A stretch of 63,967 bases of DNA, counting the filler, from Basidiobolus ranarum (taxonomy: Eukaryota): the NCBI GenBank assembly GCA_040143965.1. It is 3 parts of 3 records of this genome, joined end to end, with 100 filler letters (N's around TTAATTAATTAA, not from the genome) between each part and the next. Parts side by side here need not be neighbours in the genome. Positions count along the whole stretch, not along the records: positions 44,775 to 63,967 come from JASJQH010000256.1; 2 more parts are not named here. One strand, given 5' to 3'. The position numbers were made by a program, and so were the translations under genes. Under the pieces are notes generated by a model, which ran no database searches, was not told the DNA's origin, and worked only from the letters and a program-made list of their open reading frames with translations. Shown piece after piece: positions 7,594 through 57,122 of this stretch. Positions within the stretch are counted from its first letter, which is position 1; the number at the start of each line of letters is the position of its first letter.

Positions 7594-8271
7594 TACACCT
7601 GTACAACTAACCAATCGATTCCGAATAAATATCGGGGTATTAATTTTTAGAACAAATCAAAGCTCGAATGTCTTAGATTAATTAAGCATTCACTCGTAAG
7701 ATATAAATAAACTTCAATATTTTTATAATCTAAAAGTGCTTTAATGGCCATCGTCCAAATGAACTGCACAATTGGAGATATATTCCATCAATAAAAGTCA
7801 TGAGTTCGTACTTTTAGGAATGATATGTACTGATCATTCGATCGCATTATAACCGCGTTTGTAATCTCATTACCCAAGAACATCTACACATAGGTTGATG
7901 TCGTATCGAGTCTTATAGTCACAGTAAAACATGGTACATAAAACATATAGAAGACGCTATTATTAGTGAGTTGAAATTAGACTACAATACTGCGCCGTGT
8001 TGAAACTCGCTTCGTCGTTTGAAAGCGTTTCGGCCAAACGAATGGTTTCTTCAGACATTTTATATCGTTATCGAACACTAAACAATATATTGTCCGAAAT
8101 CTTGGTGAAACAATCCCACTACCTACATGTTGCATGCTTTTTCTTTTTCAAGTTTTACTTCTGATATGATTTCGGAACTACTAATTGATCCAGTACTGGT
8201 AGCTTAATCAATATATAAGACCGAATAACCCTATAGAGCAATTATCCTTAGATGTGCTCTGGTGCCATTCA

Positions 8272-21660: not shown

Positions 21661-22323
21661 GACACTTTGAGCGGTTAAAGTTATGTAAATTGTTTAAGAA
21701 TGAATATCAGAGTGTTCTTTGGCTTTATTCTGACTACGTTATGATGAAGAGAGAAATCATGTGTTTAACAGGAAAAGAAGAGAGCAGTGCTTCTCGAAGA
21801 TGCTAACAAACCAAACGATTCTGGTTCAGAGAGGGAGTAATTTATAGGTCTGAAAGCCAAGTAAAATGAATTCAAAATCAATATTAGCTAAATTTAGTAA
21901 GTAGATGATCGGTATTACTCAAGGCCAACCTATCACACAGTCCTGTCGGACAAATGAAATGACATGACCCCCACGCTATATGAATTCAAGAATCTTATAC
22001 AAAGCAATTACCATTTTAGTCACATAATGTAGCACTCAAACCCTAAAATCGAAGTTTATTAATGAATGTACAAATAGAGCACTCAATCACAAACAAAAAT
22101 GAGCAGAATTTACCAAGGGTGTGGACCTGACGACCAGTACGTAGCCAATCCAATCGACGCATCGGGTATTTCTCAACCCTTACTAGCCGAACGGCTCGCA
22201 ATTTGAAGGTGGCACCTTGTTTTAGTACTCGTCTATTGGGCCAGTGGAAATGGTGCGACATACCCGAAATATCCGTTTTATCGAGAAGTGCCATATATCC
22301 TGAGTTAAAAGTGTTTGGCTAGT

Positions 22324-22423
22324 NNNNNNNNNNNNNNNNNNNNNNNNNNNNNNNNNNNNNNNNNNNNTTAATTAATTAANNNNNNNNNNNNNNNNNNNNN
22401 NNNNNNNNNNNNNNNNNNNNNNN
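22324..22423. other. Assembly gap (100 nt) with artificial TTAATTAATTAA six-frame stop spacer
   Basis: N run with the spacer at 22368-22379. Confidence 0.98.
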
Positions 22424-43713: not shown

Positions 43714-44674
43714 ATGCTGACTTGCAAATTAAAACACATTTTCCTCGCAGTTATATCTCTCCTTTTATTTATTAATGTCTCTGCCTTTTCTTTGGAGGAG
43801 TACTTCACCAACCAGGATGTAAACGTACAAGTGCAGTCTTTAAGCGTATCACCACAGACAAAGATTCTCGCCGTTACCATTGAACAGGTTGATTTAATCA
43901 TTGACGAATTCGGCGAACTAGCCGACCGTACCCGACTACTTGCATTGAACTTGAAAGTCGACCAGAAGCAGTTGATTGACGAAGGACCGATATTCTATAG
44001 AGATATTCCCGTTTACGCTATTGACATTAATGATGAGGTCGATTTATTTGAAGCTGAGTTAAGAAATGAAACTCCCAAGTTACTACCCGTTAAAATGTAC
44101 GCTTGGGCTGATGTTGAGTACAACGAAGAACAGGATATATTCTTTCCTCGTGTGGTTTTACAAACTCAAATCTTGGAAGATAACGCTGTTGAGGCTGAGG
44201 TTGTTCAAGTAATTGTTGACTTGCTTGACAATGACCAAATCTCCTTGTTCCCTCCACAGAAACTCCCCTTAAACCAAGTATATTACCTTCCAGCAGGAAA
44301 TCAGCCATGGACACCATTTTCGGAATTAGATAGTGATCATTCTGTGAAAGCACCACACCACAAATGCGGCAAACACATGAGTAAAATTCACCATCAAGTG
44401 AAATCCTATGTTGAGAATGCTGCTGAGAGCATTAAAGCGTGGTTTTATCAAGCTGCTGAGACGATCAATACTTGGGCAAATGAGCATGTTGACGAACTCC
44501 AACTATTTGCTTTGATCTGGATGAGCATGCTTGGTTTTGTGGTACTCTTCCTTGCTTTACCCACTTTTATCTTCGTACGTGTTAGAAATTATAAGAGACA
44601 AGCACTCCTCGACCTCGAAGTTACTGAGGCCTTACTCCAGGATGAAGAAACCAGAGATCAGAAAATGTTACCCC
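43714..44674 (+). CDS. Hypothetical single-pass membrane protein with a signal peptide, truncated by the gap
   Basis: Hydrophobic N-terminus, acidic domain, His-rich linker and a C-terminal TM helix; the ORF runs into Ns. Confidence 0.7.
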
Positions 44675-44774
44675 NNNNNNNNNNNNNNNNNNNNNNNNNN
44701 NNNNNNNNNNNNNNNNNNTTAATTAATTAANNNNNNNNNNNNNNNNNNNNNNNNNNNNNNNNNNNNNNNNNNNN
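44675..44774. other. Assembly gap (100 nt) with TTAATTAATTAA spacer
   Basis: N run with the spacer at 44719-44730. Confidence 0.98.
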
Positions 44775-46189
44775 AGCAAACCTATCCAATCAATTGGTTT
44801 AGCTGCGAAGCCGGCATATCCTTGTCCAATAATTACGATCACGATTAAAATTAAGGCGAAAATTGGGCCAAAGGGATAGAACATGGCGGTGTAAGGCAAT
44901 TGGGTTACGCTGTTGCCTTGGGCCAAAAAGGCTTTACGGAATCTGTAATGTGAAATGGCAATACCAAACCACGCAATGAAACCGGTGATTCCAGAGGCGT
45001 TAAGTAGCCATTGATATACAGCATTTGCACTGAAAATTGAGGTGGTAAATGAAAGACAAGAGATAAGCGCTGTGAAGCCAAGCGCCCATAATGGGATTCC
45101 GTTGCGACTCACTCTTTTGAGCAATGCAGGAGCTTTACCTTCGTTGGCTAAAACCCATAAGGTTCTTGTGGCAGCATATACACCAGAGTTACCAGCAGAG
45201 AGTAAAGTCAGCATCACAATAGCATTCATAAGATGAGTGGCTGGTGCAAAACCCATAAGTTTAAACACTGTGGTGAATGGACTGGTCGCAATGGATGATA
45301 CATCACTATCTAATAAACTAGGATCGTCATAACGAATGATCATGCCGATGATTAAGATGGCACAGATATAGAACAGGAGAATACGCCAGAAAACTTGTTT
45401 AACAGCTCTGGGGATATCTTTCTCTGGGTTTGCAGATTCACCAGCAGTTACGCCTACAATCTCGGTACCCTGGAAGGAGAAACCAGCGATTAAGAATACT
45501 TGGACCACTCCCAAAGCCCCGTCAACGAATGGAGCTTCCTGAAACGTGAAATTGGATGGACCATACATCTGTGTCTCTTCACCCTTTCGTGTACAAATGA
45601 AGACGATGCCAACGATGATGAAGACAACAACAGTAAGAACTTTGATCAGCGCAAACCAGTATTCCGATTCACCATATCCTTTTACCGATAATGCATTGAA
45701 TCCGATCATTATGATTAGTAAAAGCAACGACCATACCCATGAAGGAAAGCTAGGAAGCCAAAACTTCATAATAACTGAGGCAGCAGCAAGTTCTACGGCA
45801 ACGGTAATAGCCCAACTAAACCAGTAATTCCATCCCAAGGCAAAACCAAGTGCAGGATCCACAAATCGGGAGGCGTAGGTATTAAAGGAACCGGAGATGG
45901 GCATGTAGGCAGCCATTTCACCTAAACTTGTCATCAAAAAAAATACCATGACACCAACCAATGCGTATGCCACCAAGGCACCGCCTGGACCGGCTGTGTG
46001 AATGGAGGTTCCACTTGCCAAGAATAATCCAGTACCAATAGTGCCTCCGATAGCAATCATGGATAGATGGCGAGATTTCAAGTGCCTCTTTAGATCGCCA
46101 TCTTCAAGGTTCAAGTCTTGAGTTTTTTCATCTATAAACTCCGTTTCGTGTTTCGTATCCGGAGATACTATGTGGTTCCTATGAGCCAT
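44775..46189 (-). CDS. APC-family amino acid permease, LysP/YAT-like, intronless, 3' end lost in the gap
   Basis: LKSRHLSMIAIGGTIGTGLF, GFALGWNYW, GFSFQGTE, VFWRILLFY, GFIAWFGIAISHYRFR. Confidence 0.93.
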
Positions 46190-49100
46190 TTTGTAGATTC
46201 AAACAATACTAAGTTGATGATAAGAGTAGATATAAACAACAGATAGTGTGTGAAGAGAAAGTAGTAGTAGGAGGAAGTTGATACTTTCACAGAGCACATC
46301 CCGGCCTCTTTTAAATAGCATCCAAAAGCTTAATTTGGACACTAGTGAGAATGAGCACATGAACGACATATTAACGAATTTTGCTTAATAGTAAATAAAG
46401 TTTTTTTCTTTCAATTATCGAGTGTGACCGTGAAGACATTTCAGTATAAGATGATTTCTTTTGGAAACATAAATTATCAAATCTACAATGTGATTCAGAG
46501 TGAACTTCACATAGAAACCGGTTTGTTACTTAACAGTTCATCCGATATGCGAAATTGGTGCAATTCATGGCCGAATGCAGATTTGAGGGAACAAATGGGT
46601 GCTTATTTTGGGAAAGACATACTCGAAACGGCCCAGCACAAAAGGTACTACAGAATGATTACAATCTCTATCAGTCAAGATAAATGATTGCAAACCCGAG
46701 ACGTGCCATTGGATTGAGTATTGATTTATTCTTTGCTACTTCATAATATGTTCACGTACTCATGTTGATTGAGTGAATTACCAAATCAGTAGTGCCAACC
46801 GGCTTGGATAGTCAACACAAACTGATGAACGAATGTAATGGACGGCCATTTACAGTGTGTAGCACTTACATGAAATCTATACTGCTCACATGTAAGATTA
46901 GTCCTATGCCGAACGAAAACCCCAAAGCTAGTGCACTCGAGGTTGAGGTTCCAAATGATGGGTATCCGGTTGTCAACATCTAGCCAATCCTGACCTTACC
47001 AAAGCGATAGGATTGGGTTCATCATGCGTCTTCTCTAAAGGTGCAAAGCCACTGTCTTACAGAGCTACCTTGCTTTCGTGGTAAAATCTCTATGCATTCA
47101 ATATACCAGATGGCACTCTAATAGCGATTTTCATGAATCAGGTATACGCTTCCTGTTTATGCTCATTAACCAGAGATGACAATACATGTAAACACATCCA
47201 TCATCCCCTTGTGCTGACCTCAAATCAGGTTATGTGAGAAAACAGTTGGGGCTAGGGAATTTCCTTGATCATTTGAATATTGGTTTTCCCACAATTCATT
47301 TTCTTTCGATCTCCCCAAGAAGATGACGATAATTAATCTGTGAGAATTCTATGCTACAGCAACGGTGTTGGTGTACTCTCTACTTGTACAAATTAATCAT
47401 ACTTGATATCAACCGAATCGTCCATTGAACACCCACTGAGACACGTAGAACATCTGGCGCTTCCAAGATGATTGAAATCTACGGTATTTGAAACTTGTTG
47501 ATGATTGACTTCTTCGATTGGATTTATTTGTTGGGTTTAACAGACTATATGTTAGCTCCCACGTATCAGAAGTGCGGATAAAGATGGTGATCTCAAGCAG
47601 CAGTATTAAGAAGAGTGGATCAAGATGATCCCAGACCTTACATTCCTAATAGACACATCCTAACAGATCGAGGAACTACGTGACGAACGACAGTGGTACA
47701 ATGATATGGAACTCTGCTGGCATGCCGCCTTTTCATATGGCTCTTGGGAGAAATAGCCGTACTAGTGCCATGATTGGTAAGAGTAAGCTTGTACAAGCAA
47801 TGATGTTCACCAAAGGCCTATCATCTTATCAAGCTTTGATACCGATGATGTTGCTGCCTTATTAAGTAGATTGGATATTGGTATTGCCCGATTACTTTGT
47901 ATTCTTTTTGGCTCTTTTCTTTAACCAATTCGAACTATAACTTTGAAACCTAATTTGTATGAACTGAATCACTGGGGCTCTTATCTGCCTTACTAGGCTA
48001 GCAAAGCTCGTTGGAATTGCTTAGCCTTGTTCCTCTACAATCCAACCTTTTGGGCAGATGAGTATACAGTATTGTCATAGCAAAAGTGATATGGTTCGTA
48101 AGATTTGTGAAATGGATACGTTTCGCAGGATACATACTGCTGTAACCGTTTTTCTGGATCTTACATGTACAATCAACTACCAAATGATTAGATAGGAACC
48201 ATTGTGAATAGATGATGTGTTAATCAGGTAGATACTCACACCAATGCATCGGTTATAGCTTTGAGAACTACATATATACATCTTATCCTGTTTGCAATTT
48301 TACCCCTGGGGTTTTGGCCCTAGATTGAATAGCTTCTCTTTGTAAAGTCAACATGAGTGGCACTACTGGGTATATGGAGTGACAATGCTTACGGCCATCA
48401 CTATTGATATCCATCTTACGATAGAAACGGCATTAAGCTCTCCATCAAGTACTCGGTGAAAAATACCAGGTGTATTTGGAACAAACAGAGGCCTCCCCCG
48501 CGTATGAAATTCTCCATACAGTCAGGATGTTTAGGGTTGACAACAAGAAACTGAACAAGCAGGTTAAGGCTGCTACACCAATAGGATCAATGCCGAGTCA
48601 CTTTTAACTTTTCTACTAACTGCATCAACTGGAGGGGTTTCCTCCATCGTAAAATAATCTATCTAAGGCTAGGCGGATAATCACTCCCGGATGCCTCTGT
48701 ATCCATGTATATATGAATGTTTATTAAGCAATACATGTTCGTGCAAGGTAAACCTAATTTCGCCAACGTTAACTTTAAACTGGAGATATTTCAAATTTGG
48801 CTCGTGGATTCCCCGACATTTCCCAAATCGAAAGATTTATTGGAGTTCTATTATCCACCAAAATCATCAATTTTTCATTGGAATGTGTCTTGTGACAACA
48901 CAATCATCCTAAACAGGTGTACTTTCATGAGCACATAGAAATCGCGTCATGTAGGACAATGAGCCGATACTCAGAAATCCCATTTCTAGATAATAAATCG
49001 GGAAGGATCATTGGTTGTATGCAAGCAAAGTGCCGTTGTGCCACCTATTTTGCTCGAGCCTGAGTAAGCCCAGCTAAATGCACCATTCTTTCCATATTGT

Positions 49101-52453: not shown

Positions 52454-55346
52454 AAGATTACTTTCAACTGACTCGACGGAATATAAAGCCGATCAGGGTA
52501 GAGAGTTGTAGAGTATTATGTGTAATTTGATACTTTACAAATTTAGAATTAGTTTAACAAGAATTACAAAATACAGTTATGAATGATGCTGTAGCGATCA
52601 ATATCAATCAAATAGTTAACAAAGATTTTTGAACGGGATAGGTGGGAAAGGAGACTGTGGTGTAGCGAGAGCTGTTGAAACCAACAGAAGAAGGAGGGTA
52701 CAAAGTGAGAGGAGGAGATATCTTTCAGAAATTGTTAAATTAATCCCGAAGTAAAATACAGGACAGAATATTGTCCATAAGTTGGAGCTTGTTAAAATAT
52801 AAAGGATAATTATCAACACGAGTTTGAGTGGTTAAACTTATTGAGATAAATTGACCGCATCTGTAAGCAACTTGGACGGAGTCTCAAACCTGCATCTTCT
52901 ACAAACTAAATGACAATTTGTCTAACTCCCTCTCATATCTCCACTAGGAAGCAGCACCTTGAATTGCTATAGAATGCAATACTGCTGACGAAATGCTATC
53001 AAGCAAAGTGTTTCACCAGCATTGACTAGCCCAGTGAGTAGCCATGAGTTTATAGAAACTTGCAAGTTTATCCACAGCCAAGATAGACATTTACCAAGTG
53101 TCAATTCGATCCCTAGCCACCCGTTGTTACCTTTAGATTGAAATGTAAATATTTGTTTTTAATAATGTATGGTCACCTATCGAGCTGTTGGTAGCCTAGA
53201 GATTGATGGGCTAATCCAGATCATTCGGAGGAATTTGTTACACATAGTAAACACATTACTCTGCTACGTCATTGTTAAAGGCTATGCGTAAATTCATGAT
53301 CTCATACTTGGGCCTAATCCTATGTACATGCTTTCTATAGTTCTATCTATAATATTTGCCAGGGAATATTATAAGGATATGCGGGGATGTTGACCCATCA
53401 ATCTAGTGCATGCGAAGTTAACAATGTCAAACTGTGATGCTGTTATATATACGGGGTAATAATGAACACTAAACCTTTGTAGATTGAGTGCTTTCCACAC
53501 CTAAAACACACAGCTAAGCTTACAAAGTGCATGACTTGCTACGTACCATTGGGTTTACTGAGCCTGAATGAGAGCAGATTCAGATAATGCTGAAGGCAGA
53601 GATCATTTGCCCTTTAATTTCACAATCATGTGAAAAGATAGAGCACGAGTTTGGAGACACAGGCTTGAATTAACAATTAATTGAACTGACTGAACTGAGA
53701 TTAACAAAGTATACAGCAGTTAAGTCATTATGAAGTAACAACAATGTAGCAGCTGCAGTTCATATATTTTGGAACAGGATTTCAATGCTTAGTGTCTTAT
53801 TATATTTTCATTTATTGGGCTTAACAGCATAATTCAAGTTTTGCATTAGCCATGATTAAATGGTTTATACATTACAATCGTAGTCATTTGAGGGTTATAT
53901 GCCACATGTAGCAAACTATGATCGCTTGATTTTCATACTATGAGAGGTTCAATATTGATTCAACTGAGGTGATTAAAATACCTGTCACGTTTGAGTCAGT
54001 GATTTCTATGTCAACTCAAAATCCTTATATTAGGCTACATTCTCGTAGAAGCGCAAGAGAGGCATAGATAAAGCATCTAAACGATTGGTATATTCTGCTA
54101 TATCCGAATGATTGAGGAGGAGGGTTAAATCTTTGCCACGTTAGTCAACAGCAAAGGCGGAACTTATCCCCACAAGCTCCAGCTAACTATCGCCTCGAAA
54201 ATCCTTAGAAACTTTGATGCTGCGTGTATCTTACAAACACGGCTAGCCACAAGTGAATATCCTGAGTAAACCTCTGAAAGAAAATGCTACATATAGTCGT
54301 TGGGGCTATCCTCTCTTCACCGAGCGATACTATCACCGCTCACTTCTTTTGGCGAGCTAAGAATCAATGATATCATTATGCGAACCATTTTCCACATAGC
54401 AAACCATACCATCACAATATAATATATAAGATATTTTGGCTTTCCTCTGATTAAACATCATTCCTTAGCATGTTGCTTCAAAAGTGTCTTCGATTGGGAA
54501 CAGAAGCCATGTGCTTAGAAATCTCTGCATATTTATCATGGGTTTTTTTACTTTTAGTTATATACTGATATGTTATTGAGTTCCAATTATCAAGGAACTT
54601 GAAGAAAATAATTCAAATGTCGTCGACCTGGAATATACAGGAGCATCCTGAAATTTATGCATAGCATTGCTAAGTAGTCGCTCTAATGGTAAAGTGTACA
54701 TTTCCTCATCAGCCAGTGTCACAATTATATGTCTATTATGCTTCACTCTAATTTCGAGAATCCAGTGATCAGAAAATTACCATTCGTGCTCAACTATCCA
54801 GATTAAACACTGCAAGTAGACTCGAGATATAGCTATCTAGTATAACCTAACCCTATAATAAGCCACTCCATATCAAATTGGTGGGCTAGAATTGATGCAA
54901 ATCCTATGCTAAACTATATCTCTCAAGTGGTTAGGTTATATGATCGCTTTTTCGTGTTTGGTGATTTTCTAGAAATGCTGATTGATCGTTAGTGGATTAT
55001 CAAATTCGATTAATCAAAAATAATTCAATCTAATGCCGTGGATAAACAAAGTTTAATGAATAACGATTCTGGACCAGCTATAAGGGGACCTTGGTCACCT
55101 CGGTGGTCTCGATTTGATACCAAAATGGGATGTAGAACATCCGATATTTTGAAACAAAAAACAAGCGATCCCGTGTACTCGCGTATGCTCCCAAATGGTA
55201 CACTATCGGGTAAACTAGGGTAGCATGTAAGAACTCTCGGTTTGGAAATCGACTTGACAGCTCAAAATAAAAACCCACTTATAACTAAGAAATGAGGAAA
55301 ACGAAATAAACTCGGAAGGTTTGTTTCATATTCGGACAAATGGAGT

Positions 55347-55603
55347 GGATTTGATTGGCGGCTGTCAGTGTGAATTGCCGAGCTGGTGCTACGCGATTAC
55401 TGACGTGGGAGTGGGAAATGGCGATGCCTATCCAAAAGGGTCCAACGGTTCAGTACGGCTAGTAACTGATTTACCACGAAGGATGTTTCGGTAGCGGGGT
55501 GCGGTGGTTCAGTCTCCAATATGGATCAAGTCTAGTCTACACCGTGGCGAGTCAGCCTAACCATTCATCAGTGGTTCTGCCCCACCCTCATCCTGTCAAA
55601 TCC
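55347..55603 (+). ncRNA. Candidate structured non-coding RNA (group-I-intron-like core possible)
   Basis: GC-rich island closed by the terminal stem GGATTTGA/TCAAATCC, with many internal stems whose G-U pairs work on the + strand. Folded by eye only. Confidence 0.45.
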
Positions 55604-56050
55604 CCAAAAAATCACAATCCGGAAGCGATGATGAGTGCACTCTCAATTTCTCTAGATCACCATGTGAACGACAATAATGTCACCTGTCAATCATTCTCTT
55701 GTCTCACTCTTGTTGATCATAAAATCGTGGGGCTCCTGACATTGCTTGATCCGAAAAATCCAGCTAAATGATGTTGAATTTCAAACTTGGGGTAATGGCA
55801 TAATTTATTATGATCCACAATGCTATGGAGGTTGGCAATCTGAGAATGCTCCCCTAGTTTCGGAACCCGAAATGGATCTCTCGTATAACTTCGGAAAGTG
55901 GTGCCCCTTTCCCCAACCCAAGTTTTCGAATTTTAACCGAAATATATTCCTGGAGTTTGCTAACAACTTTCTGTTTGAACTCAGCCCTTTACTCTTTCCT
56001 TTGTTCTCCCGCTCCTCCTCTTTTTTGAATTTGTAACTAACCAAGCAAAT

Positions 56051-57122
56051 ATGTCTGCCGCGCTTTTGACCACCGCCTGCAAGGCTTCTATGAAGCCATT
56101 CATGAGACAAACCACTCCTTTGGTTGGTACCAGCATAAGAACTTCTCTATTGTATAATCCTAACCAAATCTGTTAATTTCATAGCTCGCAAGCCTCGGAG
56201 CCAGGAGCTTCCAATCTGCTACCGTATCTCAAGCAAGTGAAGAAACTCCTGTTACTGCTAAAGAACCCTTGTATAAAACCTTTTCCATTTATCGTTGGGT
56301 ACGTGATTTTACTGCTAGAATCATCTTTGCCTCTACATTCTAATATTTGGTTGCTCATTTATAGAATCCTGATGAGCCCACCGAAAAACCTAAACTTCAA
56401 GACTATACTATCGATGTTAACACCTGTGGCCCAATGGTACTTGATGCTTTATTGAAGATCAAGAATGAAATAGATCCTACTTTAACTTTCCGTCGTTCTT
56501 GCCGTGAAGGTAACTTTTTAAATACTCTATATTACCTCAACTAGTGAACTTTTATTGATTGTGTTGGGTACTTGGTTGATTTATAGGTTTCTGCGGTTCT
56601 TGCGCTATGAATATTTATGGTGGCAACACTCTTGCTTGTATCTGTAAGATTGAACGCGAGGAGAAATCCGACGTCAAGATTTACCCATTGCCCCATATGT
56701 TTGTTGTCAAGGATTTGGTCCCTGATTTGAACAATTTCTACAAGCAATACAAGAGCATTGAACCTTTCTTGAAGCAGAAGAAGCCTCTTCAAGAAGGAGA
56801 TCGCGAAAATCTTCAAACCATCGAAGACCGTAAGAAGTTAGACGGTTTATACGAATGCATTCTCTGCGCCTGCTGCTCTACTTCATGTCCTTCTTACTGG
56901 TGGAATCAAGATGAGTATCTTGGCCCCGCAGTTTTAATGCAAGCTTATCGTTGGATGATTGACTCCAGAGATGAATTTGGATCCGAGCGCCGCGAGAAAT
57001 TACAAAACCCCTTCAGTTTGTACCGCTGCCACACCCTCATGAACTGTGCCAGAACATGTCCTAAAGGATTAAACCCTGGTAAAGCCATTGCCGAAATCAA
57101 GAAGATGATGGCTGCCGAATAA
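56051..57122 (+). CDS. SDH2: Succinate dehydrogenase iron-sulfur subunit, 4 exons
   Basis: Mitochondrial presequence, [57 protein letters not shown]. Confidence 0.97.

Follow-up and report, generated by a model that had tools for sequence, protein, structure and literature searches.

A GC-rich island upstream of SDH2 in Basidiobolus ranarum that can be drawn as a group I ribozyme core, tentatively read as a chance look-alike

A GC-rich stretch of 257 nt in the genome of Basidiobolus ranarum, located at 55347-55603 (+) of the 63,967-nt stretch of DNA analysed here (the window), can be drawn as the core of a group I ribozyme, as had been proposed in an initial annotation. Our preferred but tentative reading, to which we assign a probability of roughly 0.45, is that this likeness arose by chance in a spacer that does not specify an RNA. 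The island would then be GC-rich intergenic DNA upstream of SDH2 and the gene for no recognisable RNA, and the group I drawing would be a mosaic in which short consensus-like words (AATTGC, GGTTCA, GGCTA and AAG..TAGTC) are combined with weak, G-U-rich helices of 6 bp such as any 257-nt sequence of like composition provides. Because the island fails every formal model test, a chance look-alike is considered likelier than a ribozyme. Its composition, its want of an ORF or of a family match and its lack of extra folding stability are direct observations.

If real, a group I-derived RNA next to a protein-coding gene of the nucleus would be the first of its kind and would bear on ribozyme domestication. 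The case also illustrates how readily a ribozyme can be drawn on GC-rich spacer DNA: a handful of consensus words and 6-bp helices does not suffice when models, stability and context all fail.

Location and composition of the island

Ranking by GC content, inspection of reading frames and blastn mark 55347-55603 (+) as a GC-rich, single-copy island without a long ORF. At 52.5%, its GC content exceeds the window mean of 38.4%, and when all 257-nt windows of the 64 kb are ranked by GC, the highest lie on it. The GC-rich island of the initial annotation thus stands, as do all the sequence strings quoted there, each of which is present where it had been placed. Across the island the GC skew changes from +0.31 to –0.25. 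Chance resemblance to a group I core does not explain the GC richness of this non-coding island.

Stops interrupt all frames, the longest stop-to-stop frame inside the island is 69 aa (a 101-aa frame extends beyond it), and a Pfam search with 10 island frames matched no family, Melibiase at E 0.26 being the only hit; a coding exon was rejected on these grounds. Blastn of the island against the window returned only the island itself. A repeat, MITE or SINE was likewise rejected, given this single copy in the window and an 8-bp terminal inverted repeat at chance level, and so was a tRNA-derived SINE, since ARAGORN found no tRNA or tmRNA in the window and the island is present there once. A pol III gene was also dismissed. 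No run of at least four T's occurs on the plus strand before 55923, so that a pol III terminator is missing there, and on the minus strand a T4 lies within the island. Bacterial-type promoters and terminators are irrelevant to the island.

The window is eukaryotic and contains intron-interrupted genes for a DEAD-box helicase, an EF-1A-like GTPase, a GDA1/CD39 apyrase and SDH2. The latter, encoding the succinate dehydrogenase iron-sulfur subunit (56051-57122, +), was identified from its ORFs and the Pfam domains Fer2_3 and Fer4. It starts about 450 nt 3′ of the island, which places the island 450-700 bp upstream of SDH2. Rfam, ARAGORN and an ORF scan revealed no rRNA, tRNA or ORF around the island that could serve as its host gene. 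The 3.5 kb from 52500 to 56050 show no notable ORF or Pfam signal under either table 1 or table 4, whereas the window is otherwise gene-dense. A mitochondrial insert with an intron ORF was rejected, as 23 table-4 ORFs in the 52.5-56.1 kb region yielded 0 credible Pfam hits (best E 0.051).

If the island DNA is active at all, it might act in cis as part of the SDH2 upstream region. Neither CpG nor CCAAT content lends such a cis-regulatory role positive support, because CpG is not enriched (observed/expected ratio of 0.80 in the island vs 0.74, for which reason a CpG island was rejected as well) and the two CCAAT/ATTGG words of the island (7.8 per kb vs 3.1 per kb) give no clear excess. The island resembles CCAAT-box-type upstream activating regions of respiratory genes in its position a few hundred bp upstream and in carrying two such words, but differs from them in that its CCAAT words are not enriched beyond chance. 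The link between CCAAT-type regions and SDH2 regulation is known from yeast.

Relatives of the island were sought elsewhere. A 23-nt exact scan of metagenomes gave 0 matches, and the metagenomic loci found via SDH2 (best 78% identity) held no island-like DNA in any case. An 18-nt scan of viral contigs gave 0 matches to the island, and blastn of the island against phages returned noise only.

Group I-like elements on the plus strand

Helices P3 to P8, including a P3/P7 pseudoknot, can be drawn on the plus strand in canonical order. The drawing is closed by an 8-bp inverted repeat, with GGATTTGA as 5′ arm (55347-55354) and TCAAATCC as 3′ arm (55596-55603). Both closing strands had been correctly reported, but a perfect 8-bp helix of this kind is found in 73 of 300 shuffles and therefore lies at chance level. 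Inside them, the P3-like 5′ strand GTCAGT (55364-55369) is drawn with ACTGAT (55465-70) as its partner; the MFE fold pairs 55364-69 with 55398-55403 instead. An AATTGC word, together with the P4-like 5′ strand TTGCCG (55375-80), occupies 55373-55380, and pairing with TGGCGA (55419-24) yields a P4-like helix that includes two G-U pairs. The latter strand is part of a Q-like region (55416-55449), recognised by eye against the consensus, which consists of AAA, the P4 3′ strand, GCC, the hairpin TCC-AAAA-GGG and GG. This region is drawn as P6/P6a, and the isolated P6 plus P6a helix has an energy of +0.3 kcal/mol.

An R-like word follows directly on this hairpin at 55447-55461, made up of GGTTCA, GT and A(C)GGCTA (GTTCA at 55448-52 and A(C)GGCTA at 55455-61), in which the last element serves as P7-like 5′ strand with C55456 bulged. 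Further downstream lie a P8-like hairpin, ACCAC...GTGGT (55473-55508), and an S-like word, TCAAGTCTAGTCT (55526-55538), which joins a J8/7-like segment to the P7-like 3′ strand (AAG at 55528-30, TAGTCT at 55533-38) and is one base below consensus length. In the P7-like helix as drawn, the pair G55457-C55537 comes directly after the bulged C55456. This pair follows from the R and S words themselves and therefore is no independent evidence. The MFE fold of 55318-55620 also contains a candidate P1 hairpin with terminal U-G pairs at 55319-55341 (+), which is generic. Around the island no P2, P9 or P10 can be drawn, and of the features that mark an intron within its host gene (a P1 with a splice-site U-G, P10, a terminal G and exons that are ligated), only this generic hairpin was found.

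Read as RNA, the plus strand thus presents the P3 5′ strand, GUG plus AAU, UGCCG (P4), AAA before the P4 3′ strand, GCC and a 3-bp hairpin. These are followed by GG plus UUCA, the P7 5′ strand with a bulged C and then a G-C pair, GUA, the P3 3′ strand, the P8 hairpin and finally AAG plus UC plus UAGUCU. The order is the same as in group I introns (RF00028), especially the compact bacterial tRNA introns at loci L089, L091 and L118, which share with the island P3, a J3/4 of AAU, P4, an A-rich J5/4, P4′, GCC, a small P6 hairpin, GGUUCA, P7 with a bulge, a 3-nt J7/3, P3′, P8, AAG.. and UAGUC. The island nevertheless departs from RF00028 introns in several respects. Its R word is two bases longer, its J8/7 is one base shorter and preceded by an extra hairpin, its helices are weak, and the GGGAAA part of its P element and the P4 strand of its Q element differ from the RF00028 consensus. 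It also has no P2, P9 or P10 and no host rRNA, tRNA or protein gene, is nuclear and lies outside rDNA, and obtains no covariance-model score (see below).

A direct repeat is present within the island, with copies GGGTCCAACGGTTCAGT (55438-55454) and GGGTGCGGTGGTTCAGT (55497-55513) spaced 59 nt from start to start and an exact GGTTCAGT in both. Because of this repeat, the GGTTCA of the R-like word is one of two copies in the island.

Searches with covariance models

At gathering score, Rfam 15 gave 0 matches in the whole window. When the threshold was relaxed to E≤10 on stretches of 801, 281 and 188 nt, the only matches were to rli47, Afu_294, TtnuCD11 and sR32, unrelated families without base pairs that scored 9-11 bits. 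The families that the initial annotation had named for checking (Intron_gpI, GIR1, RNase P/MRP, SRP and telomerase RNA) returned nothing at either threshold. The group I model RF00028 covers 253 positions with a gathering score of 50 bits, and its scores for three introns of phage T4, which served as positive control, were 105.3, 40.3 and 35.7 bits. As base-paired models pass further speed filters, an RF00028 score of up to an estimated ~13 bits could stay hidden in such a search.

These results also bear on the idea, which we find scarcely credible, that the island encodes one of the known housekeeping RNAs (RNase P, MRP, SRP, an snRNA or U3) in a form that has diverged beyond the reach of Rfam. 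A superficial likeness exists in size, GC richness, closing helix and the GGGAAA word, and to nuclear RNase P and MRP RNA in particular the island is similar in that its terminal helix is followed by a hairpin with an internal loop. However, no Rfam match was obtained even at E≤10, words like CR-IV or CR-V are missing, and the CR-I-like GGGAAAUGGCGA finds no complement on the same strand with which to form P4. The RNase P/MRP-like topology that had been put forward as an alternative drawing is therefore not borne out.

To complement RF00028, a group I set was compiled by scanning prokaryote genomes with a pattern of consensus R and S words, which yielded 119 stretches. A nhmmer profile built on 82 cores of bacterial group I introns produced one match in the window, off the island and with E=82. 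Three covariance models (R1, R2 and R3) were then searched with filters off against both strands of the whole window. R1 was built from 25 of 28 cores with a recognisable P word (≤235 nt; three with long inserts were dropped) and recovered 121 introns in 100 loci. It gave 22 chance matches at E≤10 (7.8-12.4 bits), 0 of them on the island, where its best score was 5.9 bits and came from the S-like word only, the sole part aligned by R1-R3. R2, derived from seven compact cores of the tRNA-intron type, has the layout nearest to the island drawing; none of its 29 matches fell on the island, where 0.8 bits was the best score. R3 comprised 74 of the 121 recovered cores (≤176 nt; two duplicates and one truncated row left out) and gave 37 matches, again with 0 on the island (best –1.7 bits), while T4 td and nrdB, two introns absent from its training set, scored 47.0 and 40.0 bits. 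All three models were built from bacterial introns only and are therefore less informative on eukaryotic subgroups. The resemblance to the core words is real, and the earlier reading as a group I core is in that respect partly supported, with the words present and in order; neither RF00028 nor R1-R3 recognises the island.

R3 furthermore gave a second match (37.5 bits) at the T4 nrdB locus (L084:1928-2018, –), separated by about 400 nt from its match to the main intron core.

Folding stability and helix counts

The MFE of the island on the plus strand is –86.0 kcal/mol, against a shuffle mean of –81.7, and 36 of 200 shuffles folded as well. The corresponding z-scores are –0.87 to –0.89 for the whole island on the plus strand and –0.54 on the minus strand. 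For the core (55361-55540) z is +0.45. By comparison, 25 real group I cores, sampled as every third of the 74 cores used for R3, had a mean z of –2.23 (median –2.29, range –4.79 to –0.42), so that the island core lies outside the range of stability seen in this sample. Folding energy had been named earlier as a means of telling a structured RNA from background, and by this measure the island is no better than its shuffles.

Helix counts agree with this. Allowing G-U pairs, the island has 74 helices of at least 6 pairs (shuffle mean 74.0), 27 of at least 7 (29.3) and 9 of at least 8 (11.4). The pairings in group I order that had been described are indeed present, but they are not above chance, as at least one P3/P4/P7 set in that order occurs in 297 of 300 shuffles. 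When all such sets are counted the island holds 60, compared with a shuffle mean of 13.4, and 0 of the 300 shuffles reached this number. We set this count aside because nearly every shuffle (the same 297) holds at least one set, and we tentatively attribute the excess to the G-rich 5′ and C-rich 3′ halves of the island, which shuffling destroys. Forcing P4 and P6 into the fold costs 7 kcal/mol, adding P7 and P8 raises this to 12, and the version with P3 to 21 (MFE –91.3). The structure of the island does not exceed chance.

Against this background, it appears highly improbable that the island functions as a strongly derived group I-like ribozyme, or as an ncRNA descended from one, in a nuclear location outside rDNA. 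Such an element might be stand-alone and domesticated, or it might lie inside a long SDH2 leader or form an intron of a transcript upstream of SDH2 that is not annotated. It would have kept its junction and P7 words while the remainder diverged past current covariance models. In its favour, the retained GC richness suggests constraint, the P7-like G-C pair beside a bulged base is as in the guanosine site, and the hairpin at 55319-41 with its U-G pairs offers a candidate P1; the words and helices discussed below for a relic speak for it equally. However, an intact ribozyme should fold well and match RF00028, whereas no covariance model matches the island and 0 of the 25 real cores had a z above –0.42. 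Moreover, the J8/7-like segment is one base short with an extra hairpin before it, J3/4 is over consensus length, neither P2, P9 nor P10 is drawable, and the pol III terminator is missing. According to PMC3679873, PMC8395846, PMC9223047 and PMC7136305, known nuclear group I introns all reside in rDNA, and our literature search turned up no fungal example of a group I-like element located elsewhere.

The domestication proposed for the island would have a parallel in GIR1, the lariat-capping ribozyme (RF01807), whose group I-derived core functions without being an intron. The island differs from it in having no Rfam match and no neighbouring homing-endonuclease gene that could be seen. GIR1 itself lies within twin-ribozyme rDNA introns, adjoining a homing-endonuclease gene.

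Statistics of the consensus words

The likeness of the island to a group I core was further expressed in two ways. A descriptor consisting of GTTCA, P7 with a bulge, AAG, P3 and P4 matched the island alone in the window, and 31 of 40,000 island shuffles. In natural DNA from unrelated sources (2.38 Mb) the descriptor found only 20 of the 119 pattern-defined introns and matched 27 further sites outside them, a few of which may be real introns. This amounts to about one chance match per 100 kb of natural DNA, and the descriptor is therefore not specific.

The second was a chain of words with 25 consensus positions, AATTGC..GGTTCA..GACTA..AAG..TAGTC, of which the island matches 24, its one mismatch arising where it carries GGCTA; the next best site in the window has four mismatches. 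In 200 shuffled windows the best chain had two mismatches in 19, three in 155, four in 26 and one in none, and 728 kb of control DNA offered nothing better than a single chain with two mismatches, located in a coding region. When the words were kept in place and the remaining island positions shuffled 40,000 times, 1225 shuffles had a P3 and 6007 a P4; the P4 was flanked by AA and CC in 102 shuffles, and 5 combined such a P4 with a P3. The blocks and gap ranges of the chain were chosen post hoc, with the island already seen, and the mismatching P and Q parts were left out; allowing one gap anywhere per block would raise the chance rate of the chain an estimated ~30-fold. The positive evidence for group I is thus post hoc only, whereas the calibrated, pre-defined tests are all negative. 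Still, the word chain with P3, P4 and P7 in order, being rarer than in shuffles, is a residual oddity that stands against the chance reading.

This oddity gives some weight to a further explanation, which we regard as unlikely: that the island preserves the diverged or decaying remains of a group I core (P3-P8) that was copied into the spacer, is no longer catalytic and is devoid of host exons. Such a core could have come from rDNA, from the mitochondrion or from a bacterium. Such a relic would account for consensus-like words together with P3, P4, P6, P7 and P8 in canonical order, and for chain and conditional helix statistics that shuffles seldom reach. The G-U richness of its helices fits a history of transitions, P1, P2 and P9 are either unclear or lacking, and the GC content is foreign to a genome of 38% GC. 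A bacterial-looking permease gene in the window is also in keeping with it; the bacterial appearance of this gene indicates that foreign DNA does enter this genome. Neutral decay to 0-6 bits with four models, however, should not have spared the 25 word positions. A GC excess is not expected to survive in an old relic, and RF00028 should still detect a young one. In addition, the flanks contain no mitochondrial or homing-endonuclease genes among the 23 table-4 ORFs (best Pfam E 0.051), and Rfam and ARAGORN revealed no rRNA or tRNA fragments.

The permease is encoded by an intronless ORF of the amino-acid (lysine) type at 44726-46198 (–) of the window. Its product shares 84% and 82% identity with proteins of two Basidiobolus species, which marks the host as an early-diverging fungus of this type, and has paralogues at 84-60%. 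The next relatives after Basidiobolus belong to Brevibacillus and other Bacillales (62-64%). The gene thus looks like a member of a bacterial family that was acquired and expanded in this fungal lineage.

Candidate non-coding RNAs in and around the island

The island might instead belong to another lineage-specific ncRNA outside Rfam, such as one snoRNA, several clustered snoRNAs or a segment of a longer RNA like telomerase RNA, with the group I words being coincidental; this we judge quite unlikely. It is the highest-GC non-coding island of the 3.5-kb ORF-free stretch, box C/D-like words occur at 55506-55579 (–) and 55628-55739 (+), and CCTAACCCTA at 54846 can be drawn as a telomerase template. 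The C/D matches, on the other hand, have E values of 4.6-8.9, fall well short of the gathering scores and show no terminal stem, and neither strand gives a folding signal. A box C/D snoRNA on the minus strand was rejected, as Afu_294 reached 11.4 bits (gathering score 43, E 8.9) and TtnuCD11 10.9 bits (70, E 4.6) and the flanks are not complementary. Telomerase RNA was rejected too, because the template-like word at 54846 is not special, being one of nine such words of 8-14 nt in the window.

Just 3′ of the island, a putative box C/D-like arrangement is present at 55616-55752 (+), with AUGAUGA at 55628-34 and CUGA at 55736-39. Its flanks, GGAAGC and GCUU..UCC, are pairable around a 3-nt bulge, and Rfam gives no match to it.

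Four runs of N (176 bases in total; 22323-22423 and 44674-44774) represent masked or gap sequence in the window. The nine interstitial telomere-like (CCCTAA)n words are located at 1179, 11748, 14582, 51978 and 48538 on the minus strand and at 8226, 22039, 31015 and 54846 on the plus strand. Their number is far above chance expectation, and they may constitute a common cis element of this genome.
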